A stretch of 63,814 nucleotides of DNA, counting the filler, from Limisphaerales bacterium (GTDB lineage: Bacteria; Verrucomicrobiota; Verrucomicrobiia; Limisphaerales; SIBE01): assembly GCA_044225505.1 (NCBI GenBank). It is 3 parts of 3 records of this genome, joined end to end, with 100 filler letters (N's around TTAATTAATTAA, not from the genome) between each part and the next. Parts side by side here need not be neighbours in the genome. Positions count along the whole stretch, not along the records: positions 1 to 23,913 come from JBGAIN010000129.1; positions 24,014 to 47,813 come from JBGAIN010000130.1; positions 47,914 to 63,814 come from JBGAIN010000182.1. One strand, 5' to 3'. A model generated the notes under the pieces. It searched no databases. It was not told where the DNA came from and was given only the letters and a program-made list of their open reading frames with translations. A program made the translations under genes and the position numbers. Shown here piece after piece: positions 6,910 to 61,151 of the stretch; positions within the stretch are counted from its first letter, which is position 1; each line of letters opens with the position of its first letter.

Positions 6910-6949
6910 AAAAAAAAAGCGCCCTGTCCAACTACTCGAAGGACAGGGC
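6910..6949 (-). terminator. Rho-independent terminator
   Basis: Minus strand GCCCTGTCC-N11-GGACAGGGC followed by GC and T9. Confidence 0.8.
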
Positions 6950-7005
6950 AACTCATTCCCAAACCAACCAACAACAACCTAATGACTCACTTCTTCATCC
7001 CCACA
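6910..7005 (-). ncRNA. Candidate sigma54-dependent small RNA with GU-rich tract
   Basis: About 96 nt between a -24/-12 motif (7016-7031) and an intrinsic terminator. Contains AGGUUGUUGUUGGUUGGUUUGGG and no substantial ORF. Confidence 0.5.
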
Positions 7006-7015
7006 GTTTTTTAAT

Positions 7016-7031
7016 AGCACGACTCGTACCA
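7016..7031 (-). promoter_or_regulatory. sigma54 (-24/-12) promoter motif
   Basis: TGGTACGAGTCGTGCT fits GG-N10-GC and is close to the consensus TGGCACG-N4-TTGCW. Confidence 0.6.
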
Positions 7032-7289
7032 CGGTGTCCCGACTCCTTCCAACAGGCCCTCCCGGGGAAGTTTTCCATCTGTTCCCCGCCTCCCATCGAA
7101 ACGTCTAGCGCTTTCCATCCACGCGGGCGTGAGCTTCACGCAAAATGCGTGATTTCGCACGCAGGTCGGCATATCGGCGAATCCAGCCCATTTGCCATAC
7201 CGTTCTCGATCAACCTGACCTTCACTCAGACCAGCAAAAAGGACTTGCGCTCTTTACGCAGCTTGATCCATTGTAGCCACAGTTGCGGC

Positions 7290-7374
7290 GCGCTTATGGT
7301 GGAATTGGCAGACACGCTACTTTGAGGTGGTAGTGGGGCAACCCGTGCAGGTTCAAGTCCTGCTAAGCGCACCA
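7290..7374 (+). tRNA. tRNA-Leu(GAG)
   Basis: Acceptor stem GCGCTTA/TAAGCGC, D-loop GGAATTGGCAGAC, anticodon loop TTGAGGT, long variable arm, GGTTCAAGTCC, encoded CCA. Confidence 0.96.
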
Positions 7375-7450
7375 AAATTAGCGACTCCAAGAGAGACTCA
7401 AGTTACTGACGCGTCACATTCCAGCACCCGTATCCAACCTGATTGGCCCT

Positions 7451-7693
7451 TTGAAACTCCACGTTGTCTACTTGTTCGCCCTCGCTCTCGCGTTGTGTGG
7501 CTGCGCGTCTCACTACGATCTAACTCTCGCTAACGGGGATATCCTTCGCGCGAGCTCAAAACCTCAACTCCGAAGCGGATACTACGTTTTCAAAGACCTG
7601 GCTGGTCAGGAAACCATGGTAAACGCCATGCGGGTTCGTCAGATCGAAACGGTGCGAAGGGGAAGCCAACCGAATCGAGCGTTCGGTCAGTGA
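7451..7693 (+). CDS. YgdI/YgdR-family small lipoprotein
   Basis: Lipobox LCGC, then Y.LTL.NG....A.SKP.L..GYYVFKD..G. Confidence 0.75.
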   Translation: MKLHVVYLFALALALCGCASHYDLTLANGDILRASSKPQLRSGYYVFKDLAGQETMVNAMRVRQIETVRRGSQPNRAFGQ

Positions 7694-7791
7694 AGGGCAC
7701 ATCGGAAAAACTCTATTCGCGACGGACCTGCCGCCGGGACCGTTAACGCCCGACAGGAGTTGGTGGTCCTACGATCGCAAGCGCGCGGTCG

Positions 7792-8421
7792 CTATTGTCT
7801 CCGGCGCGCTGGCGCTGTCGCTCGGCCAGCCAGCAATTTCTCCACGTATTTCCCAAGAATATCCCCTTCGAGATTGACTTGGTCTCCGACGCGTCGTTCG
7901 CGCAATGCCGTTACCTGATAGGTATGAGGAATGATCCAGATCCGGAACGTCTTCGCCATGACGCTCGCGACCGTCAAACTGATCCCGTCGAGAGCCACGG
8001 TGCCTTTAGACACCATGTAGCGCATCAACTCTGTCGGCGGCTGCACTTCCAGGAGCCAATCGCTGCCAACCTGCTCCCAGCGCTTAATCACTCCGGTTCC
8101 GTCGATATGTCCTGTCACAAAGTGTCCGCCCAATCGATCCTCCGCTTTGAGCGATCGTTCAAGATTCACTGCGGCGCCTGGCACGAGCGTGTGGAAGTTC
8201 GTCCGCTTCCAGGTTTCGCGCAGCAAGTCGAACTCGAGGACCTTGCCGCGGTTCTCGGTGCTCATGCGGACGACGGTGAGACAGCATCCATTGACGGCGA
8301 TGCTGTTACCCACTTTGGTGCCCACTCCGCAAACACGGGCGAGAACCGCCAATCGAATTGAATCGCCCGATTCCTTAATGCGTTTGGTAACACCAGTCTC
8401 TTCAACCAGACCCGTAAACAT
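7792..8421 (-). CDS. ribE: Riboflavin synthase (alpha subunit)
   Basis: MFTGLVEE start, SIAVNGCCLTV, VNLERSL, LGGHFVTGHIDG. Confidence 0.97.
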   Translation of the reverse strand: MFTGLVEETGVTKRIKESGDSIRLAVLARVCGVGTKVGNSIAVNGCCLTVVRMSTENRGKVLEFDLLRETWKRTNFHTLVPGAAVNLERSLKAEDRLGGHFVTGHIDGTGVIKRWEQVGSDWLLEVQPPTELMRYMVSKGTVALDGISLTVASVMAKTFRIWIIPHTYQVTALRERRVGDQVNLEGDILGKYVEKLLAGRATAPARRRQ

Positions 8422-9562
8422 GCTTGGCAGCCTGTCGCTGGCTCACTAGTGCGGTCAACAAAAAATCGTCACCCAACTTCTTCCAATGCGGCGCGACAAG
8501 CCGGACGACGTCCGCAAGATCGGGAAGGCCCGCCCCGGCGACGGCCGTAGGGGCGCTCCGTCCGCCGATGATTTTAGGGGCATAGAAAAATGCGATTTTC
8601 TGGGCCAAGCCGCCAAGAAGGAACGAGGCATTCACCTCGCCACCTCCTTCCACCAGAAGGCTGGTCACCTGTTCCTTGCCCAATTGGCTGAGCAACCAGC
8701 GCAAGTCGACGCGACCTTGGCACGCCGGCGCGACAATAACCTTCACCCGCTTGGCGAGCCGCTCAACTCGTCGCGCTGGCGCCGCGCCCGTCGTGATGAT
8801 AGTCGTCCGATCAGAAGCAGAATCCGCGACGATCTTTGCATCGACGGGAGTGCGCGCGCGTGCGTCTAAAACAAGGCGTCGGAGTGGTTTATTAACGGGA
8901 GTATCCCGACGTCGAACCGTTAGACTCGGATCGTCTTGGAGAACAGTGTTGATGCCGACAAGAATCGCATCGGCCGCCAAGCGCAGTTTCATTCCGTAGG
9001 CCCGTGCGTTTGGCCCCGTGATCCACTTCGACTCGCCGGAAGCCGTCGCAATTTTACCGTCAGCAGTCAGTGCAGCTTTAACCGTGACGAACGGCAGCGC
9101 GTGAACGATCCAATGGTTGAAAGCCTCGTTCAACTCGGTTGCTTCCTCCGCGCGCACCCCGTGCCGCACTTGGATTCCAGCCTGTTCTAGCAACGCAAAC
9201 CCTCGCCCCGCATGCTTCGGATTCGGGTCCGTAGCGCCTACCACCACCCGCTGGATTCCACTCTGCAGGATTGCTTCGGTGCACGGCGGAGTCCGCCCCG
9301 TGGTTGAGCAAGGCTCCAAAGTCACGTAGAGCGTCGCTCCTTGAGAGCGAAACCCGCGCTGCGCAGCATCCCGAAGCGCTAGAATCTCGGCGTGCGGTTC
9401 CCCTGCGCGGTGATGCCAGCCTTGGCCGATAACCCGCCCCCGGTTGACCAAGACGGCGCCGACCATCGGATTAGGTGAGGTCCAACCCAAGGCGCGCTTC
9501 GCCAGGCGCAAAGCCAGGTCCATGAAATCAAGATCTGATTGCGAAGACCGTTCGGCGCACAT
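8402..9562 (-). CDS. ribD: Bifunctional diaminohydroxyphosphoribosylaminopyrimidine deaminase/reductase
   Basis: PNPMVGAV, HAE, TLEPC...TPPC, SKWITG, LLVEGG. Confidence 0.97.
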   Translation of the reverse strand: MCAERSSQSDLDFMDLALRLAKRALGWTSPNPMVGAVLVNRGRVIGQGWHHRAGEPHAEILALRDAAQRGFRSQGATLYVTLEPCSTTGRTPPCTEAILQSGIQRVVVGATDPNPKHAGRGFALLEQAGIQVRHGVRAEEATELNEAFNHWIVHALPFVTVKAALTADGKIATASGESKWITGPNARAYGMKLRLAADAILVGINTVLQDDPSLTVRRRDTPVNKPLRRLVLDARARTPVDAKIVADSASDRTTIITTGAAPARRVERLAKRVKVIVAPACQGRVDLRWLLSQLGKEQVTSLLVEGGGEVNASFLLGGLAQKIAFFYAPKIIGGRSAPTAVAGAGLPDLADVVRLVAPHWKKLGDDFLLTALVSQRQAAKHVYGSG

Positions 9563-9570
9563 GGGAGGGG

Positions 9571-10494
9571 CTAGTCCTCGTCCTCCTGGCTGAACAGCGC
9601 CTCCGCGAACTCCTTCGGCCGAAATGGCTGAAGATCATCCGCTTGTTCCCCCACTCCGACGAACTTGATCGGAATCTTGAGTTCCTTCTGAATGGCGACC
9701 ACCATTCCCCCTTTGCTCGTGCCATCAAGTTTAGTCACGACCAATCCACTGAGCGGCACCGCTTTGTTAAACTCCCGCGCTTGACTAAGTGCATTCATTC
9801 CGGTCGTGGCATCGAGGACGAGTAGAGTCTCGTGGGGCGCTCCAGGCAGTTGCTTGCCCATAACACGGTGAAGCTTCTGCAACTCCTGCATCAAGTTGTG
9901 CTTGGTATGCAATCGGCCAGCCGTATCGACAAACAGGTAATCGGTCCCCCGCGATGTCGCCGCCGTCACCGCATCATGCGCTACAGCCGAAGGATCAGCC
10001 CCGTACCGTCCAGCAACCACCGGAACGTTCAACCGCTCTCCCCAGAGCTTGATCTGCTCGATCGCCGCTGCCCGAAACGTATCGCACGCAGCTAGCAACG
10101 CCGTTTCTCCGCGGGTCTGGACAAAGTGCGCGAGTTTTGCGCCCGTTGTGGTCTTCCCCGTTCCATTCACTCCGACAATAGAAACAACGGTGACACCCGC
10201 GGGCTCTTTGTGCAACGAGGCAGTCTGAGCGGCCAGACTTGATTCCACCTCCGCCGCAGCCACCGCGAAGACATCGAGGCCAGTCGTGCCCTGCGTTTCG
10301 TAGGCTCTTTTGACAGCGGCAATGATCTCCTGGGTAGTGCTGCTGCCAAAGTCCGCGGCGATTAAAGCCGCGTGCAACTCATCCAGCGAAGTGCCCGTGA
10401 GCCGAGGGGATCGGGTCACGATCCGCTTCATCTCGTGCACGAGCTTGGAGTGTGTCTTTTGGAGACCCGATTTGAACTTGTCGAATAGACCCAT
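9571..10494 (-). CDS. ftsY: Signal recognition particle receptor FtsY
   Basis: GVNGTGKTTT, DTFRAAA, DTAGRLH, TKLDGTSKGG. Confidence 0.97.
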   Translation of the reverse strand: MGLFDKFKSGLQKTHSKLVHEMKRIVTRSPRLTGTSLDELHAALIAADFGSSTTQEIIAAVKRAYETQGTTGLDVFAVAAAEVESSLAAQTASLHKEPAGVTVVSIVGVNGTGKTTTGAKLAHFVQTRGETALLAACDTFRAAAIEQIKLWGERLNVPVVAGRYGADPSAVAHDAVTAATSRGTDYLFVDTAGRLHTKHNLMQELQKLHRVMGKQLPGAPHETLLVLDATTGMNALSQAREFNKAVPLSGLVVTKLDGTSKGGMVVAIQKELKIPIKFVGVGEQADDLQPFRPKEFAEALFSQEDED

Positions 10495-10528
10495 GATGCA
10501 ACGACCAAAGATGGACTGTTGTCACTCC

Positions 10529-11362
10529 TCAGGGAACCGCTGCCCGATAAAGCTCCGCCTTGCGTTTGAGTTGGAGCACATGCTCGTAGGGGAGTTTTAT
10601 GCTACCAATCAGCGGTTTGCCCTTGTTTAGACCGTGGCAGTCGGATCCGCCGGTGATCAGCAACCGGTGCTCCAAGGCCAGCTGAACGTAATGCTCGCAG
10701 GCCGCGGTCGTATGCTTGCTATGGTAGCACTCCAAACCGTCCAAGCCATCCGCCACGAGTTGAGGAATGACATCATCATTCCGATTAAGTCCCGGGTGCG
10801 CCAAGACCGCGACCCCACCCGCCTGGTGAACTAGTTCGATCGCTCCCCGCGCCGATACCTTGCATTTGGGCACCCACGCCGGACGATGTTTCTTGAGAAA
10901 GCGTTCGAAGGCATCATCTAGCGTCGCGCAATAGCCACCTTGGACAAGGGCGCGAGCCACGTGCGGCCGGCCTGGAGAATGGCAATTCGCCAACGCGAAC
11001 ACGGTCTCTGATTGGAGCGGAATATTCAAGCGGTTCAACCGCGCCACCATCTCACGGATCCGTTCCTGCCGGACGGTTTGATACTTTGCCATCTCCGCGA
11101 GCAGCTGCGGATGATTTGTATCGATCAAATAGCCAATGAGATGGAGCTCAATGCCATCGACTTCCGCGGTCAGCTCTGTGCCAGGAATAAACTCTAACCC
11201 TTCCTGGGCACACGCTGCGGCCATTGGTCCGCAGCCCTCGACGGTATCGTGGTCCGTTAAGGCTATCGCTCTCAGCCCATGAAACTTGGCCCGATTCGCC
11301 AACTCGGCCGGTGTATACGTTCCATCTGAGAACAGGGTGTGAAGATGAAGATCAGCAAACAT
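10529..11362 (-). CDS. PHP-domain phosphoesterase (TrpH/YciV-like)
   Basis: DLHLHT..SDG, ALTDHDT, LAHP, TGGSDCHG. Confidence 0.92.
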   Translation of the reverse strand: MFADLHLHTLFSDGTYTPAELANRAKFHGLRAIALTDHDTVEGCGPMAAACAQEGLEFIPGTELTAEVDGIELHLIGYLIDTNHPQLLAEMAKYQTVRQERIREMVARLNRLNIPLQSETVFALANCHSPGRPHVARALVQGGYCATLDDAFERFLKKHRPAWVPKCKVSARGAIELVHQAGGVAVLAHPGLNRNDDVIPQLVADGLDGLECYHSKHTTAACEHYVQLALEHRLLITGGSDCHGLNKGKPLIGSIKLPYEHVLQLKRKAELYRAAVP

Positions 11363-11375
11363 GCCAGCCGGAATT

Positions 11376-11876
11376 TTACTTCACCAGTCGCGCTGGCCTC
11401 ATCAGGTCGCCTTTAACCTTATCCAAGATGCCATTCACAAATTTGCCGCTATCCTCTGTCGAAAAACGCTTCGCGATATCCACCGCTTCGTTAATGCTGA
11501 CCACGGGAGGAATATCCTCCCGGTATAACATCTCGAAAATAGCTAACCGCAAGACGTTACGATCCACCACCGCCATCCGGTGCAAGTCCCAGTTTCGGGC
11601 GTATTTCTTGATCTGCGCATCGATATCCGCTGCATGCTCGATCGTCCCTCGAATCAACGGTTCGGCAAACGTTTGGATCGCAGATTCATCCTCGGTAACA
11701 GGTGGCACGGGGACCGCCTCGCCCCATCGGGCCACTCCCTTTTCCTCCGCTAGCGCCGCCGCGCGTTGACTCTCCCAAAAGACGCGCAGCGCCTCGTTCA
11801 GATCTTCAGGCTGATTCAGGTCGAACTGAAAAAGAAATTGCACAGCGCGTTCTCGCGCCTCGCGTCTTATACCCAT
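11376..11876 (-). CDS. nusB: Transcription antitermination factor NusB
   Basis: RREARERAVQFLFQ, DRNVLRLAIFE, INEAVDIAKRF, FVNGILD. Confidence 0.96.
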   Translation of the reverse strand: MGIRREARERAVQFLFQFDLNQPEDLNEALRVFWESQRAAALAEEKGVARWGEAVPVPPVTEDESAIQTFAEPLIRGTIEHAADIDAQIKKYARNWDLHRMAVVDRNVLRLAIFEMLYREDIPPVVSINEAVDIAKRFSTEDSGKFVNGILDKVKGDLMRPARLVK

Positions 11877-11957
11877 AGATAAGAGGATGTCCGACCTCTG
11901 GCGTTGGCGCAAAGGAATTCGGACAGCAAAGATTGTGCAGCCCTAGTGGGATGACCG

Positions 11958-13106
11958 CTAATATTTGGGAACGCTCGGATCAATCTCCTCAGCCCAGGCG
12001 GTGATTCCCCCTTTGACACTCTTAAGATACTTAAAGCCCTGTTCTCGGAGGAAATGGACCGCTTTGAGCGATCGAATCCCACTCTTGCAATGGATATAAT
12101 ACTGCTGGTTGGCATCCAATTGCGTGAACTTCTGTGGCAATAGGCTTAAGGGCAGCAGCAGCGTTCCATCCACATGAGCAATCTGGTACTCGTCTGACTC
12201 GCGCACGTCGATCACTTTGATCCCCAGTTTTGGATCGATCAAAGCTTGTTTCATCGCTTGCACGGTGACTTCGTCCGGATTAGCGCTCGGCGCCACCGGC
12301 TCTGCTGTAATCCCGCAAAACTGTTGATAGTCGATTAAGTGGTGAATCGTTGGTTTCTCGCCGCACAACGGACACTCCGGATCGCGACGCAGCTTCAGCT
12401 CGCGGAATTTCATATCCAGCGCGTTGAACAGCAGCAACCGGCCGTTCAGTGAACTCCCCTTGCCCAGCGCGAGCTTCAATATCTCCGTCGCTTGAATGCA
12501 ACCGATAATCCCTGGCAGAACTCCCAAGACGCCACCTTCAGCGCAGCTGGGCACCATTCCCGGAGGCGGCGGTTCCGGATACAAGCATCGGTAACATGGC
12601 CCTCCCAGATGGGGTGCAAAGACACTCGCCTGCCCTTCAAAACGAAAGATCGATCCGTAAACATTCGGCTTCTTGAGAAGCACGCAAGCGTCATTGGTCA
12701 GATATCGCGTCGGAAAGTTATCGGTCCCATCCACCACAATGTCATATTGAGCGATGATCTCCAACGCGTTCTCGCTCGAGATTCTCGTGCTATGCACCAC
12801 CACTTCGACGTTCGGGTTGATTCCCTGGATCGTCTCCCGCGCGGATTCAGTCTTAGGCCGCCCAACGTCAGCTGTGCTATGAATGATCTGCCTCTGCAAA
12901 TTGGAGAAGTCGACCGCGTCAAAGTCCAAAAGCCCTAATTTCCCAATTCCAGCCGCCGCCAAGTACATGGCGATCGGGGATCCCAATCCACCCGCACCAA
13001 TACACAAAACACTGGTCGAGCAGATCTTCTTCTGCCCAGCCAACCCCACCTCCGGCAAAATTAAATGCCTGGAATAGCGGCGGATTTCATCATTGTTTAA
13101 TTGCAT
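11958..13106 (-). CDS. moeB: Molybdopterin-synthase adenylyltransferase with rhodanese domain (MoeB/MoeZ)
   Basis: RYSRHLILPEVG, GAGGLGSP, SNLQRQ, CYRCLYP, PSCAEGGVLG, C-terminal rhodanese. Confidence 0.93.
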   Translation of the reverse strand: MQLNNDEIRRYSRHLILPEVGLAGQKKICSTSVLCIGAGGLGSPIAMYLAAAGIGKLGLLDFDAVDFSNLQRQIIHSTADVGRPKTESARETIQGINPNVEVVVHSTRISSENALEIIAQYDIVVDGTDNFPTRYLTNDACVLLKKPNVYGSIFRFEGQASVFAPHLGGPCYRCLYPEPPPPGMVPSCAEGGVLGVLPGIIGCIQATEILKLALGKGSSLNGRLLLFNALDMKFRELKLRRDPECPLCGEKPTIHHLIDYQQFCGITAEPVAPSANPDEVTVQAMKQALIDPKLGIKVIDVRESDEYQIAHVDGTLLLPLSLLPQKFTQLDANQQYYIHCKSGIRSLKAVHFLREQGFKYLKSVKGGITAWAEEIDPSVPKY

Positions 13107-13170
13107 ACCAATCAGTATTGCTTGCAGCGTAGATGAGCGACGCGAGAAATCAAGCCAACCCCGCCGGTCC

Positions 13171-13998
13171 GTGACTTCCATCGCCCGAAAAACAGCCTCT
13201 CTTTTATTGCAGGCCACCACGCTCCGCCCGAGGATCGGCGTCGTTCTAGGCAGTGGTTTCCAGGGTTTGGCCGAAGCCGTTCAAACCGAAGTTGAGATCC
13301 CCTATTCCCGATTATCCGGCTTCCTTCCCTCAACGGTGGATGGGCACCACGGCAAACTTATCATCGGCGCTCTGAAAGACACGCCGCTCTTCGTCCTTTG
13401 CGGCCGTAGCCATTATTACGAGGGACATTCCATGTCGGAAATCACATTCCCGATCCGGGTCCTCGCGGAGTGCGGCGTGCGAGGCGTGGTTCTAACCAAC
13501 GCTGCCGGTGGCATCAATCGGAAGTTTCGAGTGGGCGACTTCATGGGCTTAACAGACCACATCAATCTGATGGGCGCAAATCCGTTGCGTGGCGGTTTCG
13601 AAGGCGGGCCTGTCTCATTTCTTGATCTGAGCCAGACCTACGATCCTGCCCTGGCTAAGCTGCTTCTCAAAGTCGCCCGCAAAAAACGGATCCCGTGTCA
13701 TGCCGGCGTTTACGCGGCTGTCTCAGGTCCCACCTACGAAACTCCAGCGGAGATCCGCGCGTTTGCCCGTCTGGGAGCAGATGCAGTCGGCATGAGCACG
13801 GTGCCGGAGGCAGTCGTTGCACGGCAATGCAGACTGCGAGTGTCCGCGATCTCCTGCATCACCAACGCCGCCGCTGGCCTGTCGCCTCAGCCTCTATCGC
13901 ACGCGGAAGTTTTGGCCGCTGGCCGAAGAGTGAAGAGCCACGCCGTCGCTTTGCTCACGGAGTTTGTTCGGCTGGCGCATCCGATCTTGGCGGATTAA
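13171..13998 (+). CDS. Purine-nucleoside phosphorylase (trimeric PNP type)
   Basis: VVLGSG, GRSHYYEG, TNAAGG, GPTYETPAE, VGMSTVPE. Start uncertain; GTG 13171 chosen to avoid overlapping moeB. Confidence 0.92.
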   Translation: MTSIARKTASLLLQATTLRPRIGVVLGSGFQGLAEAVQTEVEIPYSRLSGFLPSTVDGHHGKLIIGALKDTPLFVLCGRSHYYEGHSMSEITFPIRVLAECGVRGVVLTNAAGGINRKFRVGDFMGLTDHINLMGANPLRGGFEGGPVSFLDLSQTYDPALAKLLLKVARKKRIPCHAGVYAAVSGPTYETPAEIRAFARLGADAVGMSTVPEAVVARQCRLRVSAISCITNAAAGLSPQPLSHAEVLAAGRRVKSHAVALLTEFVRLAHPILAD

Positions 13999-14146
13999 GA
14001 CCGGACTTTCGCGCATCCAATAGACGCCGAATCCGGCTGGTTGAATTTGTTAGCTGTTCCAGATAAGGCTTTTAAGACAAAGCTGGCGCCCCCGCTGTTT
14101 TCGGCGGAACAGAAGCTGTTCCTCCGGTTCTGGGACAGGCGTTTGG

Positions 14147-14366
14147 CGTCCCGGCAGGGACGTCGCGGTATTAGCCCGGCACTTCCAGTGCGCACAGATC
14201 CAGTGCGCACAGATTTCAAAATCCCGACGGGACGCCTGAACCTCCTCGAATCCCAGAACCAACGTGTTTTCGGATAATCGCCCGCCCCTTCCGGGGGGGA
14301 TCGTCATGGGTCGCTGGGTCTCGGCGCTAAAGCGTCCGAGCTATTCTCATTCATGCCTCCGGCACG
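14147..14366. repeat. Inverted pair of REP-like elements
   Basis: Forward copy GTCCCGGCAGGGAC...TAGCCCGGCAC...TCCCGACGGGACGCCTGAA (14147-14240). Reverse copy at 14278-14366 resembles 23808-23894. Confidence 0.6.
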
Positions 14367-14858
14367 TCAGTCTTGGCTTGGGTACGCGGGCCAGAGACTC
14401 AACGGTTGCCTTGTGCGGGATCCTATTTCACTGAAAACAGCGAAGAACCACGTCAACAAATTGCGAACCCTCCATGGCGCCGCAGCAGCTCGGCGCAACG
14501 CAGCCTCTAACTGCTAGCGATGTCGCACACGTTGAGAGCAAAATGCTCCGAGACGAATACCGGTGACCCGCGGCGTGGGCTTTTCCGTCTTTCGATTGGG
14601 ATCCTTACGAGCCCTATCGCGAAGCGAGAACCCTATTTTCCGAAGCGGACCAACCCAACCGTCCGACCCGCCCGCTCCACGCTATCGCAGGTCGGCATCC
14701 GCTTTCGATAGCGACAAAACGGCGCCATCGGTGCATGCTCGTTGTCGCTGATCCCGATCGAATGCGGATCAGACTCGTTCGCTCAAGACTGGTTGTCGCG
14801 ACTGAGCGCCCAAGCGAATCGAACACAGAATTATTGCTATCATCACAGGAACAACGTC

Positions 14859-40075: not shown

Positions 40076-40344
40076 AGTGATCCTTTGGTTTGGGCCTACC
40101 TGTTGGGCACAATCTCCCTTATTTCGTTGAAGTGTCAACCGGCCTAACGGCCGTTCTATCAAGGAGTCCGACGGTGCGCAAGGAGTAGACTTTCGACGAA
40201 ATTCGGTCCAGAGCTTGAACTCCGCTGAGCGTGACGAGGTGATCAAAGCCAGGGCCGTTCCCAATTCCGGGAAGTTGCCCAACGTTTGGATACAGAATGT
40301 TTTGCGCTGCCCTGGCGTTTCCCGGTAGTCTTCGGGAAAGCCTT

Positions 40345-52050: not shown

Positions 52051-52448
52051 ATTGAACTTACGGGCGCCGCGCGCCCCGGTTGGCCCGGATCCCAGGTGCC
52101 AAATGTCACCAACGAGTCAACTAGTTGAGCAACAAGATGTTGATTTCAGAACAAAACTCCCGTGACTAAAGCTTAGCCGAGACCGCGACGTTGATTGCAC
52201 TCAGCGATCACGGGCGTCTTGAGAGCAATTGCTCTCAGATAGCGAGCCAAGTGAAAAATAACCCGTCCTCCTTGAGACGGGTTCAGCGTTGAAGAAGAAA
52301 ACTATGTGTTAAGAAACGTACTGGAGATCGCGAAACGTAGCCATCGGGCAAAACCTGAAATTCTCATGGGATTAAGCCCCAGGGCCAGAGCGTAACGGAT
52401 GCGCTTTTTTGCTTTCCAATGCCGCGCGATTCAGCGTTGCTTTACCGT

Positions 52449-53627
52449 ATGGCTTCAGCTTTAGACTTGAGCAGCTTCGTCGCTGATCACGTTCGCCAGA
52501 TCCCCAGGTCCGGGATCCGCGAATTCTTTGATATTGTTCAAACGCAAGCTGGGGTGATCTCGCTTGGAGTCGGAGAACCTGATTTCGCGACGCCGTGGCA
52601 TATTCGAGAAGCTGCCATCTATGCCTTGGAGCATGGCAAAACGAGTTACACCTCGAATTTGGGGTTACTTAAGCTACGGCAAGCGATTTGCGCGCATCTC
52701 GAGACTCATTTTGGAGTCGGGTATAATCCGCAGACGCAAATTCTGATTGCTGTTGGGGTTAGCGAAGCCCTCGATATTGCTTTACGGGCGTTAATTAACC
52801 CTGGAGACGAGATTCTCTATCACGAGCCTTGTTATGTCAGTTACTCCCCAAGTGTTGCGCTGGCGCACGGGGTTCCCGTGTCGATCGCTTGTACAGCGGA
52901 GAATGGGTTTGCCGTGAAAGCCGAAGCTATCGAAAAGGCGATCACGCCTCGCAGCAAGGTCTTGGTCCTCAATTTTCCAACCAACCCAACCGGCGGGACC
53001 CTGACGCGCGTGGAATTGCTTCGGATTGCGGAGGTCGTGCTGCGCCACAATCTACTGGTGATCACCGATGAGATTTACTCGGAGCTCACATTTGAGGGGG
53101 ACCATGTCAGTATTGCGTCCCTGCCTGGGATGCGGGAGCGGACGGTCTTCCTGCATGGTTTTAGCAAAGCGTACGCCATGACTGGGTTCCGAATTGGCTA
53201 TGCGTGCGGACCTGCTGAGATCATCGAGGCGATGATGCGAATCCACCAGTATTCTATGCTGTGCGCAAGCATTATCAGCCAGGAAGCTGCGTTAGAAGCG
53301 ATTCAACACGGCGAGCCAGACACGATCGAAATGCGCGATCAGTATCGAGTTCGGCGCAACTACATTGTGAATGCTCTCAATGACATGGGGCTTTCCTGTC
53401 ACCAGCCGCGGGGATCGTTCTATGCCTTTCCCTGCATCCGTTCTACCGGACTCTCCTCGAAAGAGTTTGCATTGCGCCTCTTGCAGCAGGAGAAGGTGGC
53501 TTGTGTTCCGGGCAGCGCCTTCGGGCCGAGCGGTGAGGGATTTGTCCGATGTTGCTTCGCAACAGCACTCGATCAGATCCAGCTTGCGACGCAACGGATG
53601 GAGCGGTTTGTGAAGGCTCTCAAGTGA
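52449..53627 (+). CDS. Class I/II PLP-dependent aminotransferase
   Basis: SLGVGEPDF, NFPTNPTG, DEIY, GFSKAYAMTGFRIGY. Confidence 0.95.
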   Translation: MASALDLSSFVADHVRQIPRSGIREFFDIVQTQAGVISLGVGEPDFATPWHIREAAIYALEHGKTSYTSNLGLLKLRQAICAHLETHFGVGYNPQTQILIAVGVSEALDIALRALINPGDEILYHEPCYVSYSPSVALAHGVPVSIACTAENGFAVKAEAIEKAITPRSKVLVLNFPTNPTGGTLTRVELLRIAEVVLRHNLLVITDEIYSELTFEGDHVSIASLPGMRERTVFLHGFSKAYAMTGFRIGYACGPAEIIEAMMRIHQYSMLCASIISQEAALEAIQHGEPDTIEMRDQYRVRRNYIVNALNDMGLSCHQPRGSFYAFPCIRSTGLSSKEFALRLLQQEKVACVPGSAFGPSGEGFVRCCFATALDQIQLATQRMERFVKALK

Positions 53628-53774
53628 TCCAGGCGGAGCGGGAATGGTTTCGCAGTGCCGGGAAGTCCCGCTTGGTTTGGTTGACTTGAATCAAGGGCGC
53701 GGCTGTCCAGCTTCGGCAACATGGAGAGAGCGAGCGCGATCGCAGCCCATGCGCGCTCCAACCAAAGCGCCACC

Positions 53775-55124
53775 ATGAAACCGGAATCGGCCGACCAAAA
53801 AGCCCTCACTTCCCGACGTCAATTTCTCAAAACCTCCGCCACGGCCGTGGCCAGTGCCGCGGTGGCCACCGCCGTGATGCGTCCCGGGTATACAGCGGAG
53901 ACAAATACCTTGAAGATTGCTCTCATCGGGTGTGGCGGACGTGGCACAGGAGCCGCGGCACAAGCACTTTCAACGGAAGGCCCAACCCAGTTGTGGGCGG
54001 TCGCCGATGTGTTTGAACATCGGATTGACAGCTGCTTAAAAGGGCTTTCCGCACAGCATGCTGCTCAGATTCATGTGCCGGTCGAACGCCGCTTCGTCGG
54101 TCTGGACGGATTTCGAAAAGCGATCGACAGCTTGGATAAGGGAGACGTCGTTTTGCTCGCGACACCGCCCGCATTTCGCCCGATTCACTTTGCCTACGCG
54201 GTGGAGAAAGGCTGCCACGTATTCATGGAAAAGAGCTTCGCGGTGGATGCGCCCGGGATACGGCGCGTCCTGCGGACGGGCGAAATCGCGAGTCAGAAAG
54301 GTTTGAAGGTAGCGGGCGGGTTGATGAGCCGCCATTATCGACCGCTAGCTGAGGCTGTCGAACAGATCCATGGCGGAGCCATTGGCGAAGTAATCACCGC
54401 GTGGGCCTACCGCATGCACGGCCCGGTTGGAGTCAATCCGCGTCAAACGGGAATGTCCGAGCTAGCTTACCAGATTGCCAACTACAGTTGTTTCACTTGG
54501 CTCAATGGCAGTTTCCTGGTCGATTGGCTCATCCACAATATCGACGTTTGCTGCTGGGTAAAAGACGCCTGGCCGGTTTCTGTTCAAGGAATGGGCGGCA
54601 GGCAAGTGCGGAAAGCCCCGGACCAACTTTTCGATCATTATGCAGCTGAGTATAGCTTTGCCGACGGGACGAGGCTCTTCGCTCAAGGACGGCACCAGAC
54701 AAAATGCTACGATTTTTTTGGCGACATTATTCATGGAGCGAAAGGCTGCGCTGTGCTGGGCGAAGGTCAACCGAAGCCGCGCCTGTTTCGGGGTCACAAG
54801 ATGAGTTCGGAAGCCCTGATCTGGGACTACAAAGGCCCCGCATGTGACGCTTATCAGTTTGAGCACGATCTGCTCTTTGACGCCATTCGGAAAGATCAGC
54901 CCTACAATGAAACCGAGCGATGCGCCAAATCCTGTTTCACAGCGATCATGGGACGGATGGCCTGTGAATCTGGTCGGGTCGTTACGTGGGAAGAGGCTTT
55001 GGCGTCCAACGTTGAGCTCGCTCCGGGACTAGAGCAACTAACCTGGGAAGGGGTACCCCCTGTCGTCGGCGACTCCGAGGGGCACTATCCAGTCGCTGTG
55101 CCAGGAGAAACAGAAGCGTTTTAG
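53775..55124 (+). CDS. Tat-exported Gfo/Idh/MocA oxidoreductase
   Basis: SRRQFLK, LIGCGGRGTGA, TPP.FRP.H, FMEK, IHNID. Confidence 0.9.
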   Translation: MKPESADQKALTSRRQFLKTSATAVASAAVATAVMRPGYTAETNTLKIALIGCGGRGTGAAAQALSTEGPTQLWAVADVFEHRIDSCLKGLSAQHAAQIHVPVERRFVGLDGFRKAIDSLDKGDVVLLATPPAFRPIHFAYAVEKGCHVFMEKSFAVDAPGIRRVLRTGEIASQKGLKVAGGLMSRHYRPLAEAVEQIHGGAIGEVITAWAYRMHGPVGVNPRQTGMSELAYQIANYSCFTWLNGSFLVDWLIHNIDVCCWVKDAWPVSVQGMGGRQVRKAPDQLFDHYAAEYSFADGTRLFAQGRHQTKCYDFFGDIIHGAKGCAVLGEGQPKPRLFRGHKMSSEALIWDYKGPACDAYQFEHDLLFDAIRKDQPYNETERCAKSCFTAIMGRMACESGRVVTWEEALASNVELAPGLEQLTWEGVPPVVGDSEGHYPVAVPGETEAF

Positions 55125-55160
55125 GAGCATTCCCGAGGTGCGTCTCCCGGATGGCTGGCG

Positions 55161-56579
55161 TCACGAATGATTCGATTCAACTTGCGCCGCGGGAGCAGGC
55201 AGAGAGCGTTGAATCTCGGAAAGTCGGTAGCCGTAGCCCGGCCCGCGGAGGGTCGTGAGGTCGACGACTCCTCGGCGGCGTTGATATAGCCCAGGATGAA
55301 CCGCTTGCTCGGGAAGTGAAGCTTCGGGATAAAACTGCATCCCGTTAGTTTCCACCCCCATGATCGTTCCGACGTGGGCCGCCAAACGAACGTGGGGAAT
55401 CTGAGCCAGCATTGGGTTGCTCAGATCTTGGACCATCAACGTCATGCCGTGCGCCTTGGCCCAACACGCGCTTAAGATCGCTTCACTTTGCGTCTTGCAG
55501 GTCTTGAGGGCAACGCCGGACCATCCTAGCTCGCGTCCCAGTCGAATGACTCGCCAGTCATGGGCACTCTCGTCCAGAAACAGTGGTTTTCTCGCTGACA
55601 CACTGTGCGCGTCGATCCGGTACTTCTCCAGGTCGTATGGGAATGGCTGCTCCACATATAAAATCATGCCAAAGATGCGCGCTTGCTCATCGCGCAGCCG
55701 ATCGAGCAGCGAGTTGACGTAAGACGGGTCCATTACCGTGCAGTTGAAATCGGCGGTTAGCCATTCCACGTTCTTTGCCACCGCGACTTTACCGACTCGC
55801 ACCAGCCGATGGTAATCCCAATCCCAATCGTTCCCGCGCAGCTTGACTTTCAGGCACGTGAGCCCGTCGCGATCAATCCAGTCGCTCAATAAGACAGGAT
55901 AGCCGTCCTTCGGTTCGTCTCCGCTCAATTCACACTCGTGGATCAGATCGAGACCTCCGACCAAATGCCACGCGCGCAGGGAAGTCGGCGGTTCGTTGGT
56001 TAGAAATTCCGCTGGGTACCGGTCGGCAAACGTCACTGTGCTGCCTGAAGCCGGAGTGAGGAAGTCGGCCAGGTCGCGGTTCATGAACTCGGATCCGAAC
56101 GTGGTGTAGACATCGCGACGCAACAACTGCCCGTAGGCATCGTGCAGCGCAAGGTCGAAAGGCGAGCAGCAGACCAGCGCCGCTAGCCAAGGCATGCGTT
56201 CGCCAGTGGCCTGAACGTCGGCATTCGCACCTTTGAGTAATCCGGGTAAAACCTCCTCTTTGAACATGTAGCCCAATTCCAAGGGATGTCCCAATTGATC
56301 GAAGACTGGCCACGCCCGGGTCAGAGCTTCGGTAAAGCGCTTGAGCTGCTCAAACCTCGTTTGATATGGTAAGCTACTCGGCCAGACCCATTGCACACTG
56401 AGCGGGGTTTCGCCCCAGCCCTCGGCTTCATGGCCGTTCCGGTCGACCACTCGAAGTCGAACCCGCGCGCATGTTACCTCCGTCAATGTTTCCGGTCCAA
56501 ACTTGAGTGGGACACGAGCCCGCATCGGCAAGTAGTACAACGTCGCGGACCGAACTTGGATATCGGTAGGTTTCTTCAT
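55161..56579 (-). CDS. Enolase-superfamily (MR/MLE) enzyme
   Basis: GWGE, LKVKL, ADFN, VEQP, LDES, ALKTCK. Confidence 0.85.
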   Translation of the reverse strand: MKKPTDIQVRSATLYYLPMRARVPLKFGPETLTEVTCARVRLRVVDRNGHEAEGWGETPLSVQWVWPSSLPYQTRFEQLKRFTEALTRAWPVFDQLGHPLELGYMFKEEVLPGLLKGANADVQATGERMPWLAALVCCSPFDLALHDAYGQLLRRDVYTTFGSEFMNRDLADFLTPASGSTVTFADRYPAEFLTNEPPTSLRAWHLVGGLDLIHECELSGDEPKDGYPVLLSDWIDRDGLTCLKVKLRGNDWDWDYHRLVRVGKVAVAKNVEWLTADFNCTVMDPSYVNSLLDRLRDEQARIFGMILYVEQPFPYDLEKYRIDAHSVSARKPLFLDESAHDWRVIRLGRELGWSGVALKTCKTQSEAILSACWAKAHGMTLMVQDLSNPMLAQIPHVRLAAHVGTIMGVETNGMQFYPEASLPEQAVHPGLYQRRRGVVDLTTLRGPGYGYRLSEIQRSLPAPAAQVESNHS

Positions 56580-56598
56580 CGCTTCGACCTGTCAGCAA

Positions 56599-57996
56599 TC
56601 ATTCTGGCAACGGCTTCCCTTTGGTCTCGGGCGCAAACCAAATCAAGACCATTCCCACGAGGTAAACCAAGGTTACGATCGCCCCCGCGCGGGAATAGCT
56701 CCCTTCAAACGCCGCCACCAACTGGCCTTGGGTCAGCGCCCCGACGGCGGCAAAAATGCGACCGAAATTGTAACTCAAGCCCTGGCCAGTCGCACGCACC
56801 CGTGTGGGAAACAACTCCGGAAAATAGAGTGGAAACCAGCCGTAAAATGAGGCCGTGGATAAACTCATGACGAAGGCGAGCCCAAGGAACCCGGAAGTAA
56901 AGGTCGAGACCGAGCGAAATGTGAAGGCGCAAATCAGAAACGAAGCCAAACAAAGCAAGAAGTAGGCAGGACGGCGTCCAAGACGGGCGCCAATGAGAGG
57001 GGCTAGGAGCGTTCCAATGATTGCGCCCAATCCCTGGATCATCTGCATATTAGCGGTAGCTTTGCCGGCATCTTGTTTCACGCGGGTTTCGGCCGCAGTT
57101 CTCTCGGCGCCAGGCCCATTTGGAGCTTCTGCAGGCACATACCAGTCTGGATGCTGTCGTTTCAGTTCCGCGAAACCGTGTTCCGCCACCATCTGGTTCG
57201 CCCATAACGGCAGCCATTGGACGGACCCCCAAGTCCCAATCAGCGCCACGGAGGCGAACGAAATTGCCAAGAGAGTTCGCCCGCGCAGCCCTGCGCCAAA
57301 GACCTCGCGCAAGGGATGGCCATGACCAGCTTTGATCGATTGGCGCCAGCGCTCCGATTCCGGGACCATCGCGATGATAAAAACGACGAGAAACGCAGGA
57401 AAGGCTGCGACGATCAGCATCCAACGCCATGATTCGGGGGTCACTTGATGCAGGCGGGCTGTGAATCCGACGAGCAAGAAACCGACGTTTGCCGCAGCCC
57501 CGATCGATCCCGCTAAGAGGGGCCGCCATTTCTCCGGCCAGCATTCCATTACCAGGGCGACCCCGAGCGACCATTGGCCGCCCATACCCAAAGCCGAAAT
57601 GAAACGGACCCAAGCCAAGTCGCTTGGGCTGGAAGCAAGATAGCCAAAGCCAGTCACGAGAGAATAGGTGAGGATACTGAATGCCATGGCCTTGACGCGG
57701 CCGATTCGATCCCCAAGCCAGCCGAAAACAAGCCCGCCCAAAGCAGCCCCGAGAAGAAAGCACGCGGTGATAATTCCCATCCACCAGCCCACCTGCGCGT
57801 CACCCGCGCCGCCAATCAGACTCTTGAGCGCAGGTCGGGCGATGACCGGGAATAGCCCGATCTCATATCCGTCGAATAGCCAGCCGAGAAAGGCAGCCGC
57901 AAGCACTAACCATTGTCCTGAGCTTAACGTAGTCGGAGCGCCTGGCGCCGGACCTGCCCCCACGCCGCTGGAAGTCACCTTAGCTTTGTTTTCCAT
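56599..57996 (-). CDS. MFS transporter
   Basis: GWLFDGYE, FGWLGDRIGR, PELFPTRVRATGQG..YNFGR. Confidence 0.93.
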   Translation of the reverse strand: MENKAKVTSSGVGAGPAPGAPTTLSSGQWLVLAAAFLGWLFDGYEIGLFPVIARPALKSLIGGAGDAQVGWWMGIITACFLLGAALGGLVFGWLGDRIGRVKAMAFSILTYSLVTGFGYLASSPSDLAWVRFISALGMGGQWSLGVALVMECWPEKWRPLLAGSIGAAANVGFLLVGFTARLHQVTPESWRWMLIVAAFPAFLVVFIIAMVPESERWRQSIKAGHGHPLREVFGAGLRGRTLLAISFASVALIGTWGSVQWLPLWANQMVAEHGFAELKRQHPDWYVPAEAPNGPGAERTAAETRVKQDAGKATANMQMIQGLGAIIGTLLAPLIGARLGRRPAYFLLCLASFLICAFTFRSVSTFTSGFLGLAFVMSLSTASFYGWFPLYFPELFPTRVRATGQGLSYNFGRIFAAVGALTQGQLVAAFEGSYSRAGAIVTLVYLVGMVLIWFAPETKGKPLPE

Positions 57997-58993
57997 AGAA
58001 GAGATTCCGGCCAGCCACAAGCGCAGCCATTTTTCGATCCGCAACGGAACGCGGCAACATCCAAAACCCACAATCGGGGTGCACCCACTGCACGCGGTCT
58101 GCGCCGAGGACTTTTACGGCCTGTTCGATGCGGCCGGCCACGACCGACGGAGATTCCACTTCGTTGTCCTTAATATCGATCACTCCAATTCCTAGACCAA
58201 TGTCCGACCGAATCTCGCGCAGCCACTGGATTTCATCAGTCTCGCGCCGTGCCACCTCCAAAATGAGGTGGTGACAATGGAGAGCATTGAGAAAAGAGAT
58301 TAAGCTATGCCAGTCACCTTTTTGAATCGTTTGGCCACCGTAGTTTCCGAAACAGAGGTGGATGGCTTTCTCGTGACGCACTCCCTGAAGCACGTGATTG
58401 ATCGGTTCGTGTGCCCACGCCAAATCCTCAAGGTGGCCCGTGATATGCGCCTCGTCCAATTGCACGACAGCCGCATCGATCTCCTGGACCTGGATCCGCA
58501 GGACCTCCGCCAGGGCCATCGCCAGAGCACGCTCATCTTTGTAGTGACAGTCGAGCAACGTCTTGGCCAGCATGTACGGGGAAGTCACCGTGAATTTCAA
58601 CGGCTGTTTCGTCAGGTCCCTCACTGCGCTCCACACGGACGGCAGGTCCAAGGTGCCCGGGCCGATCGCAGAGCGTACCATCCCAGCAGGTCGCGTCCGA
58701 AATGACGTCCGAGCTTGGGCGCGGAAGCGGAGAATCTCGTCGCGACTGAGCGCACTCGAGATTCCCTCCATTGGCCGGGTAAAATATTCGATCATCCCGT
58801 TGGTTTCCGGATGATTGATGTCGAACCGGGTGAGTTCTCCGTCCGTCAGCACGTCCAAGCCGGCCAACTCTTGTGTCTTTAGGACGACCAAGACAGCATC
58901 TCGCAGATTGGACGCCGCAGGGAGAGTGGCCAACCAGGAAGGAATTGGATAGCTGCCAACGACGGTGGTCTGAATTGGCTTGGACGATGGCAT
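57980..58993 (-). CDS. Single-barrel cobalamin-independent methionine synthase II family protein
   Basis: TTVVGSYP, QELAGLDVLTDGE, QLDEA, Zn ligands HLC and PDCG. Confidence 0.88.
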   Translation of the reverse strand: MPSSKPIQTTVVGSYPIPSWLATLPAASNLRDAVLVVLKTQELAGLDVLTDGELTRFDINHPETNGMIEYFTRPMEGISSALSRDEILRFRAQARTSFRTRPAGMVRSAIGPGTLDLPSVWSAVRDLTKQPLKFTVTSPYMLAKTLLDCHYKDERALAMALAEVLRIQVQEIDAAVVQLDEAHITGHLEDLAWAHEPINHVLQGVRHEKAIHLCFGNYGGQTIQKGDWHSLISFLNALHCHHLILEVARRETDEIQWLREIRSDIGLGIGVIDIKDNEVESPSVVAGRIEQAVKVLGADRVQWVHPDCGFWMLPRSVADRKMAALVAGRNLFYGKQS

Positions 58994-58999
58994 GAGCCC

Positions 59000-59773
59000 T
59001 TAGGGAATGCAGAATTGATCGGCCGGCAAATCGGTGATGAACGCGTGACCCGGAGCGTGCGTCACCATGAAATCCAGTTTTGAATCTATCGCCGCCCGTT
59101 GCGGAGTCACGCCGCACGCCCAAAACACCGGGAGGATTCCATTCGGGATGCGTTCGACAGGTTCACCAAAAAGCGGGTGCAGCAGGTCTGCGCCTATTTG
59201 CGCTGGATCGCCCAGGTGCACGGGCGCCCCATGATTGAAGGGGAATCGGCCGGTGAGTTGCGTAGCAATAATCGCCTGCGCCGGAGTCATCCACCGCATT
59301 GTGACCACCAAGGAGGAGGTGAATCGACCGGCAGGAACGGTTGGTAGGTGGGTGTCCAAAACCCAGATCTGTTTGGAGCGTGGAACCCCGGCTCTTTCCA
59401 ACGCATGATCGAAAGTCATGCTCGAGCCGATCAGGAAGGCGATGCTGTCCAATCGCCAGTGGGATTGGATATCCGTGACGTACTCGCGCAGCACGCCCCG
59501 TTCGTAGACGGCGTAGCGCGGCAGGTCAGAACGCAAATCGGCTCCGGAGGCACAACGTCGCGGATATGGATCGCCAGCGTCCAAAACCTCAAGGAGCGGA
59601 CAAGCTCGGGGATTTCGCTGACAATAAACCAGAAAATCGTAGGCGTCCCGCTGTGGCAGAACCACGAGATTGCATTGGACGAACCCTGGGAATTGAAATG
59701 TCGTGGGGCCCGTCCAATTGCCGCGACGCATCGCCAGGCGAGCTTCGGCCGGGCTGGAAATGCTCGCCGTCAT
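59000..59773 (-). CDS. DUF1445/D-glutamate cyclase family protein
   Basis: VQCNLVVLP, FLVYCQRNPRACPLLEV, PVFWACGVTPQ, THAPGH.FITD. Confidence 0.88.
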   Translation of the reverse strand: MTASISSPAEARLAMRRGNWTGPTTFQFPGFVQCNLVVLPQRDAYDFLVYCQRNPRACPLLEVLDAGDPYPRRCASGADLRSDLPRYAVYERGVLREYVTDIQSHWRLDSIAFLIGSSMTFDHALERAGVPRSKQIWVLDTHLPTVPAGRFTSSLVVTMRWMTPAQAIIATQLTGRFPFNHGAPVHLGDPAQIGADLLHPLFGEPVERIPNGILPVFWACGVTPQRAAIDSKLDFMVTHAPGHAFITDLPADQFCIP

Positions 59774-60876
59774 GGTTGAGCAGACGGAGTTTGAGAGCCA
59801 CGAGCGGCGGGAAACGCGTGACCTCTTCGACGATTAATCTCTTTGCGACTTCGGCCCACGTAATCACGCAACTCCTCCAATCCAAACTGTTTTGCCAACG
59901 CGCGAGCGCTGACACCAGGACGCGCCGCCCGCAGGACATACCAGGATTCCCGTTCCATGTATTTCTCGAGCGCCACGTTCGCACCTTGAGCCCGAAGAAA
60001 TGCAGGAATATCGTTGAAATTGGAATGGTAAATCCCTCGGTCCAAGTCCAAAACGCATCGGGCCGACAGGATGCCATTCTCGCGTGCATCGAGGAGTTTC
60101 TCGCCCGTGAGGTCGAAGACCTGGGAATCGCCCGTGTGGGTAGCAGTGACGATGTAATAGTGGTGCAGCAAGGCATAGGCGCGCAGCTGTTCGCCAGCGG
60201 AGTAAGCGCTGGGCCAAGCCACGATCTCGGCACCATCATCCGCGAGTTCCTGCCAAACCTCCGGAAAATTGACATCGAAACAGATGGCAACGCCCAAACG
60301 GCCAAAGTCGGCTTCAAAGACGGGCGCTCTCCGGCCGGGAACCACCGGCTGGTGGAGATCGTACTCGCTCCAATAAGGAAACACCTTGTCGTAACGACCG
60401 ACGATTCGGCCTGCTCGATCAATAAGTATAGCGCTGTTGAATCGACCGTCCGCACGTTGGACATCGAGGGGGGTGAGAATGTAGGTGTGATATTTCTTGG
60501 ACAATCCTGCCAAGGAGCGAACGGTGCGCCCCTCTTCCGGTTCCATGCTCTGGTCATTCTGCCCTAGCCACGTCTCTGGCAACACGATGAGATCTGTCCC
60601 CTGTTGCGCTTGACTCTCGACGACCGAGAGGATTTCAGTCAGGGAACGCCCCGGACGAAAGGAAAGGCTGACCACGCGAACAGGTCTTCCCAGAAGGTTA
60701 GGACCGAACGTCGAGGCTGCAGGGAACACAGCGGCCCCCGCGGCTGGACGAGTGACCGTGCAACTTAAAAACGCCAACGTCCACACCGCCAGAAAAGCGG
60801 TAACGGGCCAGAACGTTACGGGCATTGGCTTAGGTCGAACTTGCGGCTGAGCTGGCGATGAGCCGGCAATTCTCAT
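59770..60876 (-). CDS. Carbon-nitrogen hydrolase (nitrilase superfamily), probably an exported lipoprotein
   Basis: Triad LPE / YDK / ICFD; N-terminal hydrophobic stretch ending LAFLSC. Confidence 0.88.
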   Translation of the reverse strand: MRIAGSSPAQPQVRPKPMPVTFWPVTAFLAVWTLAFLSCTVTRPAAGAAVFPAASTFGPNLLGRPVRVVSLSFRPGRSLTEILSVVESQAQQGTDLIVLPETWLGQNDQSMEPEEGRTVRSLAGLSKKYHTYILTPLDVQRADGRFNSAILIDRAGRIVGRYDKVFPYWSEYDLHQPVVPGRRAPVFEADFGRLGVAICFDVNFPEVWQELADDGAEIVAWPSAYSAGEQLRAYALLHHYYIVTATHTGDSQVFDLTGEKLLDARENGILSARCVLDLDRGIYHSNFNDIPAFLRAQGANVALEKYMERESWYVLRAARPGVSARALAKQFGLEELRDYVGRSRKEINRRRGHAFPAARGSQTPSAQP

Positions 60877-60982
60877 GGCTCAAGAGAATCAAACGGGAGG
60901 AGAGTTCTCGGCTGCAAGTTAGGCCGAACGGATTTCACGCAGGCATTTTGGCAAACGTCAGGTCTTTGTCCATTCATTCCCC

Positions 60983-61014
60983 AAAAGAAAAAGCGGGCAT
61001 CTCACGATGCCCGC
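60983..61014 (-). terminator. Rho-independent terminator
   Basis: Minus strand GCGGGCATC-GTGA-GATGCCCGC-TTTTTCTTTT. Confidence 0.8.
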
Positions 61015-61121
61015 CCAACCCAAACAACCAAACTCCTCCTTTGCCCAAGACGGGCGGAGGATTTTCGAACGGTGAGCAGGACTGCTCCTGCTCCAATGCA
61101 ACCAAACTACCTCGTTCAGAC
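60983..61121 (-). ncRNA. Candidate ECF-dependent small RNA with two AGUUUGGUUG boxes
   Basis: About 139 nt between an ECF-type promoter and a terminator. Two internal hairpins; AGTTTGGTTG at 61099-61108 and 61025-61034. Confidence 0.5.
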
Positions 61122-61126
61122 GGTAT

Positions 61127-61151
61127 AACGCCTGAACATGTTCAAAGTTTC
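61127..61151 (-). promoter_or_regulatory. ECF-sigma-type promoter motif
   Basis: GAAAC-N16-CGTT. The spacer contains the perfect palindrome TGAACATGTTCA (61133-61144). Confidence 0.5.

Follow-up and report, generated by a model that had tools for sequence, protein, structure and literature searches.

Candidate small RNA genes with G/U-rich tracts in a Verrucomicrobiota genome, one of them representing a family conserved across its order

The stretch of DNA analysed here (the window; 63,814 nucleotides (nt)) consists of three joined contigs of a Limisphaerales genome (assembly GCA_044225505.1) that is 9.0 Mb in size, 57% G+C and 95% complete. An earlier inspection of this sequence had proposed that two minus-strand units on different contigs share a promoter, a G/U-rich tract and an intrinsic terminator, and that their RNAs pair with CA-rich translation-start regions. 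Both units were found at the predicted positions (contigs C223 and C291) and both have this layout, although the RNA of the second is predicted to measure about 127 nt rather than 140 nt. We conclude from sequence comparison that units 1 and 2 are very probably RNA genes. Promoter classes were assigned by consensus sequences: that of unit 2 we take to be of the extracytoplasmic function (ECF) sigma factor type, whereas that of unit 1, TGGTACGAGTCGTGCT, is presumably of the sigma54 type with its -24/-12 elements. The elements of unit 2 (minus strand, 61146-60983) are as follows.

61118-61146, minus: ECF-type promoter, TTTGAAC-16-CGTCT (in the family TTTGAAC, 16-17 nt, CGTC), called from conservation and motif counts
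60983-61111, minus: predicted small RNA (sRNA) of about 127 nt, its ends deduced from the promoter and the U-run
61034-61042, minus: purine box resembling a Shine-Dalgarno (SD) sequence, directly 5' of the G/U tract, in 113/128 homologs
61017-61033, minus: conserved G/U tract, GUUUGGUUGUUUGGGUU
60983-61016, minus: intrinsic terminator with covariation, stem-loop 61016-60991 and U-run to 60983

The predicted RNA begins with GUAGUUUGGUU, followed by two hairpins, the purine box, the tract and the terminator. When 60 relatives were searched with BLAST, unit 2 was recovered from 17 at E < 0.001, together with a weaker true hit (L039). Column identity among the 17 aligned sequences, which were chosen by BLAST so that the alignment is biased toward the tract and terminator, is 0.97 for the -35 box and 0.88 for the -10 box with 0.46 for the spacer between them, and falls to 0.51 in the 5' body as against 0.96 in the tract and 0.94-0.96 in the terminator. 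The tract is thus better conserved than the 5' body. At least 118 loci matched a 20-letter seed pattern; among the matches listed, the terminator is present in 104/118, Verrucomicrobiota is named in 67 of 80 record titles, and 55 of the 104 terminator-bearing loci carry the ECF motif, which the pattern does not require. Over 134 unit 2 loci the ECF motif was found in 89, compared with 10 control hits. The terminator stem is maintained by compensating changes: across 97 sequences 99.3% of cells are paired, both sides have changed in 7 of 10 pairs, and none of 500 shuffles scored as high.

Model searches place this conservation within one taxonomic order. The full-length unit 2 model detects 65 of 151 genomes of the order, from 44 of 98 genera, with one copy in each except G059. 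Hits of a shorter model of tract (seed) and terminator that score less than about 30 bits are for the most part generic terminators, and for this reason tallies at E 0.05 were left unused and counts were taken at 35 bits or more; at this threshold the model finds 79 of the 151 order genomes among the matches listed, mostly as single copies, and none of 150 genomes outside the order. The best hit outside it (L204, 32 bits), from another order of the class, has the promoter motif, G/U tract and terminator all present. Viral contigs gave no match to the family. The commonest neighbour of unit 2 is a divergently transcribed beta-CASP nuclease gene (46/134 loci, some of which are too short to show a neighbour), and five genomes that lack a model hit showed no unit on visual inspection of about 180 nt next to the start of the beta-CASP gene. 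No Rfam family matches: nothing relevant was found at gathering score, a search of ten loci that admitted E values up to 5 likewise gave nothing relevant, and the only Rfam match inside the window is to transfer RNA (tRNA; RF00005). These comparisons of sequence show that unit 2 represents a conserved family of predicted stand-alone non-coding RNA genes in one order of Verrucomicrobiota (Limisphaerales/Pedosphaerales in record titles). Its constant parts, as aligned, are the ECF-type promoter, the G/U tract and the terminator; the intervening hairpins are variable and are absent from forms of about 60 nt. Complete units also occur under non-Verrucomicrobiota record titles (L047, L049, L055 and L126), which are likely to be misbinned contigs or mislabelled records.

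The genes downstream of unit 2 are diverse and often convergent (the largest clusters comprise 15, 9 and 7 of 134 loci), so that unit 2 does not behave as a cis leader, which argues for action in trans. A cis-acting leader or attenuator of the downstream gene, or an orphan terminator with a chance promoter, could be read from the nitrilase-family open reading frame (ORF) that lies on the same strand about 100 nt past unit 2 in the window genome, and from the lack of reads over the RNA; but promoter and tract are kept in fixed order and no antiterminator is conserved, and we consider this explanation very improbable. With regard to the reads, six RNA runs contained a small share of the query, and the four checked as contigs gave a depth of 2-3 on the neighbouring deacetylase gene only and none over the RNA, a depth that shows neither presence nor absence. 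We also rejected a peptide-coding reading of unit 2, since none of the frames after its purine box is conserved among the homologs (99/25/3). The units had been described as ORF-free but are not strictly so, as three antisense ORFs overlap them. None of the three has a Pfam match, those at 60858-61157 and 6897-7325 are interrupted by stop codons in some homologous loci, and that at 6503-6982 gave a partial alignment in one of three loci.

Unit 1 (minus strand, 7031-6911) lies beside a tRNA gene, with these features.

7016-7031, minus: sigma54-type -24/-12 promoter (TGG...TGC), its spacing constant in 4/4 distinct sequences whose flanks are unalignable
6911-7004, minus: predicted sRNA of about 94 nt, ends deduced
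6958-6980, minus: G/U tract, a possible seed or binding site for a protein, invariant in 4/4 sequences
6911-6950, minus: intrinsic terminator, stem-loop 6950-6920 and U-run to 6911, with the stem kept and the loop variable
7136-7152, no strand: palindrome TCACGC-N5-GCGTGA, to which a sigma54 enhancer-binding protein may bind (candidate upstream activator site)
7290-7371, plus: tRNA gene divergent from unit 1, serving as synteny anchor (Rfam RF00005), read as Leu from the sequence

Unit 1 was found in only one of the 60 relatives, namely G002, a member of the same genus in which the RNA is 92% identical and sits beside the same tRNA while the flanks are unalignable. Further matches came from four metagenome loci, of which three are identical; the four distinct sequences found in all have an invariant block of 42 nt and the -24/-12 box in common. 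The tRNA neighbour is kept in the homologs L042 and L273. The tract is predicted to be unpaired in the minimum-energy fold. The genome contains an rpoN gene, and the palindrome, which is 104 nt upstream of the -24 box, has no second exact occurrence genome-wide; similar palindromes are seen in L042 and L273, and in L276 the situation is not clear. From these sequences, unit 1 is a narrower, putative sigma54-type RNA of the same design as unit 2. Near its 5' end lies a three-codon mini-ORF (start, Lys, Lys, stop; 6998-6987, minus) that occurs in 4/4 sequences with ATG or TTG as start.

Among 299 strict terminators genome-wide the two units have the longest pure G/T runs upstream (22 and 20 nt, with 14 nt for the third longest), which is more than chance would give. 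The original prediction regarded them as possible paralogs, which the comparison does not establish: BLAST detects no similarity between them, the seed and terminator model of unit 2 scores unit 1 and its homologs at 7-18 bits, and their terminator stems and promoters differ. It may thus be that unrelated RNAs with separate targets, forming no single family, converged on a low-complexity G/U tract, an explanation to which we give appreciable weight while holding it to be somewhat less probable than its opposite. What speaks against it is that intermediates exist. Among 43 divergent hits of the unit 2 model (40 fetched stretches, together with L204), the ECF motif is present in 19, against 4 in a reverse-strand control, and a sigma54 motif in 5, against none. 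One of these five is inside a tandem triple in G059 (L233; G059:C1:3203500-3204030), where three units of G/U tract and terminator follow differing promoter-like motifs, one ECF-type and one sigma54-type. Many of the divergent hits are minimal forms of about 60 nt with promoter, tract and terminator only, and a few units follow a stop codon and look to be derived from 3' untranslated regions (3'-UTRs). The proposal that one module is placed behind different promoter types is borne out across the order in these ECF, sigma54 and 3'-UTR-origin forms. Convergence would in any case concern ancestry only, and is compatible with the explanation of function that we prefer below. Taken together, units 1 and 2 are real, uncatalogued sRNA genes as far as sequence can tell, unit 2 a widely conserved family and unit 1 its sigma54 sister.

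Within this genome a large multicopy family did not materialise; there are two clear units and one unconfirmed third, a candidate at G000:C229 (minus, about 19140-19030) with a sigma70-like box, a small hairpin, UUUGGUUGUU and a terminator, whose 12-nt word was in none of five relatives by exact-word search. Elsewhere, two more conserved sub-types (L260, L263 and L266; L253, L258, L259 and L261) have tract sequences of their own and no ECF motif.

The best reading of the function of these RNAs, to which we assign a probability of about 0.5, is that they are stress sRNAs which act without Hfq by pairing with A/C-rich translation starts. According to this model, transcription under stress (ECF) or enhancer control (sigma54) would yield stable RNAs of small size. 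Their G/U tract would pair with translation-start regions that are A/C-rich and weakly structured, lowering initiation on many mRNAs. Hfq (PF17209) was not found in the 95% complete genome by a search in which positive controls were detected, and so RNA recognition motif (RRM) proteins or KhpB may be the RNA partners, with their own mRNAs as possible targets; there are six RRM genes in this genome and 1-6 in each of 15 relatives. The RNA might then constitute the non-coding arm of an ECF response, working like the R1 region of GcvB and like FopS of Bacteroides. A sigma70-family/ECF model gave 146 matches genome-wide, many in long fused ORFs, and a scan of the genome for the ECF regulon returned 25 sites with no clear stress regulon and no cognate sigma factor singled out. 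Separately, high-scoring copies of the ECF-type promoter occur at G000:C221 (minus), upstream of an ORF like ribosomal protein L1, and at C128 and C246.

Translation starts in this genome have a weak SD signal and are A/C-rich. The four CA-rich words by which DUF883, Tat-Gfo, DUF1501 and jag had been named as targets are all present at the stated coordinates, but their number is near the chance level: matches to either tract occur among called genes at rates of 7.4% for 7 nt, 2.6% for 8 nt and 0.27% for 10 nt, so that with 47 genes called on the three contigs, about four such sites would be expected by chance. DUF883 and DUF1501 are absent from these 47 calls, which come from a custom caller that misses short genes (DUF883 being one) and places starts imprecisely. 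Two of the sites were followed through their orthologs.

62653-62681, minus: start region of jag/KhpB, the best candidate target in the window, from ortholog matches
40085-40094, minus: 10-mer in the DUF883 start region, a candidate target site from presence of the sequence

Matches of at least 7 nt, mostly at codons 4-6, are found in 16 of 30 jag orthologs against a background of 4.6%, and orthologs that read Gln-Pro-Lys use CAA CCC AAA in 7 of 14 cases where early-codon usage would give about 9%. The DUF883 family has such matches in 7/22, but its leaders are very A/C-rich (0.65 vs 0.52). For RRM genes the complementary word is in 5/7 and 4/13 leaders of two clades and in 0/31 of the largest. 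On these sequence counts, jag and one RRM clade are candidate targets chosen post hoc.

Genome-wide, AACCAA occurs 82 times in start regions, where 58 are expected (rank 50 of 4096), and five of 15 long A/C runs are at called starts, including those of an RRM gene and glnA. We counted two word pairs before YYATG in 80 genomes, each with a single control word, no correction for word abundance, and related genomes counted as independent. CAACCAAA exceeds its dinucleotide-matched control by 639 to 471 in 40 RNA-bearing genomes (31 higher, 8 lower), with 198/169 in 20 members of the order that lack a clear hit and 158/189 in 20 genomes from other orders; RNA-bearing genomes differ from other orders at p 0.009, a value that treats related genomes as independent. 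The second pair goes in the same direction, with 164/197 and 119/136 in the latter two groups (RNA-bearing genomes vs other orders, p 0.11). The two-word test gives only a modest trend, and three genome-wide tests are null or borderline.

Several results weigh against pairing as the function. The second word pair is not significant in the RNA-bearing genomes themselves (579/533, ratio 1.09, p 0.23), and the 5/7 of the RRM clade, a post hoc result, does not differ significantly from shuffled seeds (p 0.17). Genes with 8-nt matches number 68 vs 50±15 for shuffled seeds (p 0.12) and 91 vs 63±17 (p 0.06), and seed-like order inside A/C runs is found in all sequence classes, not at starts alone. 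In a low-power test on 468 ortholog pairs (drawn from only 1.2 Mb of sequence from G002 and 0.4 Mb from G052), seed-complement 6-mers were kept no better than other A/C words (0.083 vs 0.097). Rankings by duplex energy and by a custom score yielded no coherent top list, and no extended or bipartite target stood out. The glnA site was rejected as a target since it is not kept (0/3 for unit 2, 1/3 for unit 1). Predicted folds leave the G/U tract only partly free of pairing (0.47), and no enrichment of signal-peptide genes was detected for unit 2 (0.37 vs 0.39; unit 1 0.46 vs 0.37, p 0.08) with what is a crude predictor. For both units the sequence-based claim of targets is weak.

The weakness of the genome-wide pairing signal is also a point in favour of the main rival explanation, that the RNA is a decoy whose GGUU/UUGG repeats titrate an RNA-binding protein of RRM, S1 or cold-shock type. 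Family variants contain the GGUU unit 2-5 times, at spacings that vary and often at the 5' end too (48/86), RRM genes are present as given above, and the RRM protein RbpB of Bacteroides binds single-stranded regions of sRNAs (PMC11697453). Yet the motif is not enriched on the sense strand of leaders (43 at -30 to -1 vs 35-51 in upstream bins) whereas its complement is (84 vs 35-51), and the 17-nt tract is near-invariant as one block and not as free repeats. We judge a decoy unlikely, while ranking it first among the competing functions. Known decoys include CsrB, which titrates CsrA, and CrcZ, which titrates Hfq, and some RNAs of this type are sigma54-driven. The unit 2 family is similar to them in its repeated short motif and dissimilar in having few repeats, of GGUU rather than GGA or ARN, and in a genome where Hfq was not found.

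The purine box suggests another role. It is followed by UUG at an SD-like distance of 5-6 nt in 96 of the 113 homologs that bear it, AAAGGA and AAGGAG are top words of this genome's start regions, and the gene most often found next to the unit encodes a beta-CASP nuclease; the RNA could thus be a decoy initiation site that binds the 30S subunit or recruits a nuclease without making a peptide. Against this, predicted folds place the box largely in stems (unpaired probability 0.35), and it is absent from minimal forms and from unit 1 and precedes no conserved frame; we hold such a role to be quite improbable. An ambitious extension of the preferred reading, pairing with A/C-rich translation starts, would include the box: an order-wide, Hfq-independent layer in which one G/U module, reused under ECF, sigma54, housekeeping and 3'-UTR promoters, shuts off A/C-rich translation enhancers in a lineage that makes weak use of SD sequences and feeds back on RRM and KhpB mRNAs, while the SD-like box of the long form may engage the ribosome. 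In this full form the idea is speculative and rather unlikely.

Pairing of this kind has precedents. The R1 region of GcvB is unstructured, conserved and GU-rich; its proposed pairing partners are CA-rich elements close to ribosome binding sites, and GcvB acts in connection with Hfq (PMC3879156). Units 1 and 2 resemble it in a conserved GU-rich region that is partly unpaired in predicted folds, and differ in matching no Rfam model, whether by gathering score or with E values up to 5 allowed, in a genome without detectable Hfq, in ECF or sigma54 promoters and, by eye, in the lack of an amino-acid-transport regulon among the candidates. FopS and GibS of Bacteroides thetaiotaomicron combine a single-stranded seed with an intrinsic terminator and repress near start codons (PMC11697453, PMC13370968). 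The likeness extends to a lineage without Hfq and with RRM proteins, and to the minimal forms, whose promoter, tract and terminator follow the layout given for FopS (PMC11697453). FopS, however, is present in 12-15 copies per genome that depend on the housekeeping sigma factor (PMC11697453), in contrast to one ECF copy per genome and few sisters here, and is stated to be deposited in Rfam (PMC11697453), where our units have no match in a copy of Rfam whose FopS model was not checked for.

ECF-driven, stand-alone sRNAs with a low-complexity seed are exemplified by the sigma-E-dependent FoxI/FoxJ of Fusobacterium (PMC11005410), and VrrA is likewise sigma-E-dependent (PMC2628432). Unit 2 is similar in that an ECF-type promoter is predicted to drive a stand-alone RNA directly, and it has several features of the class: an ECF-type promoter in fixed place, its own terminator, no conserved ORF and independence of the downstream gene. 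Its seed is a G/U tract, not the C-stretch of FoxI/FoxJ, and no bias toward envelope-protein targets is shown. MicA and RybB are further sigma-E-dependent sRNAs. By analogy, the family would work like GcvB, FopS and FoxI/FoxJ and is yet distinct from each.

Open-access papers contain no description that we could find of this family or of regulatory small RNAs in the order, although supplementary tables of motif screens could hold one. The family is a defined starting point for studying post-transcriptional control in Verrucomicrobiota of soil and fresh water, and a test of whether the design of an ECF sigma factor with an sRNA arm, and RRM-assisted regulation, reach another phylum; the promoter motifs and two RNA models are ready for curation.

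Two minor observations concern neighbouring subjects. RRM genes across the order (G000 C22, C74, C187, C323 and C337; loci L417-L470) have 5' leaders that are long and strongly conserved and fall into two or three types; the six loci tested gave no Rfam match. RRM proteins with long regulatory leaders are reported from Bacteroides in a paper whose available text does not mention Verrucomicrobia (PMC13370968), and the leaders seen here may represent a new cis-regulatory RNA that possibly responds to cold or serves autoregulation. Finally, homologs of the histone-deacetylase gene near unit 2 align only from residue 65, at about 61330.

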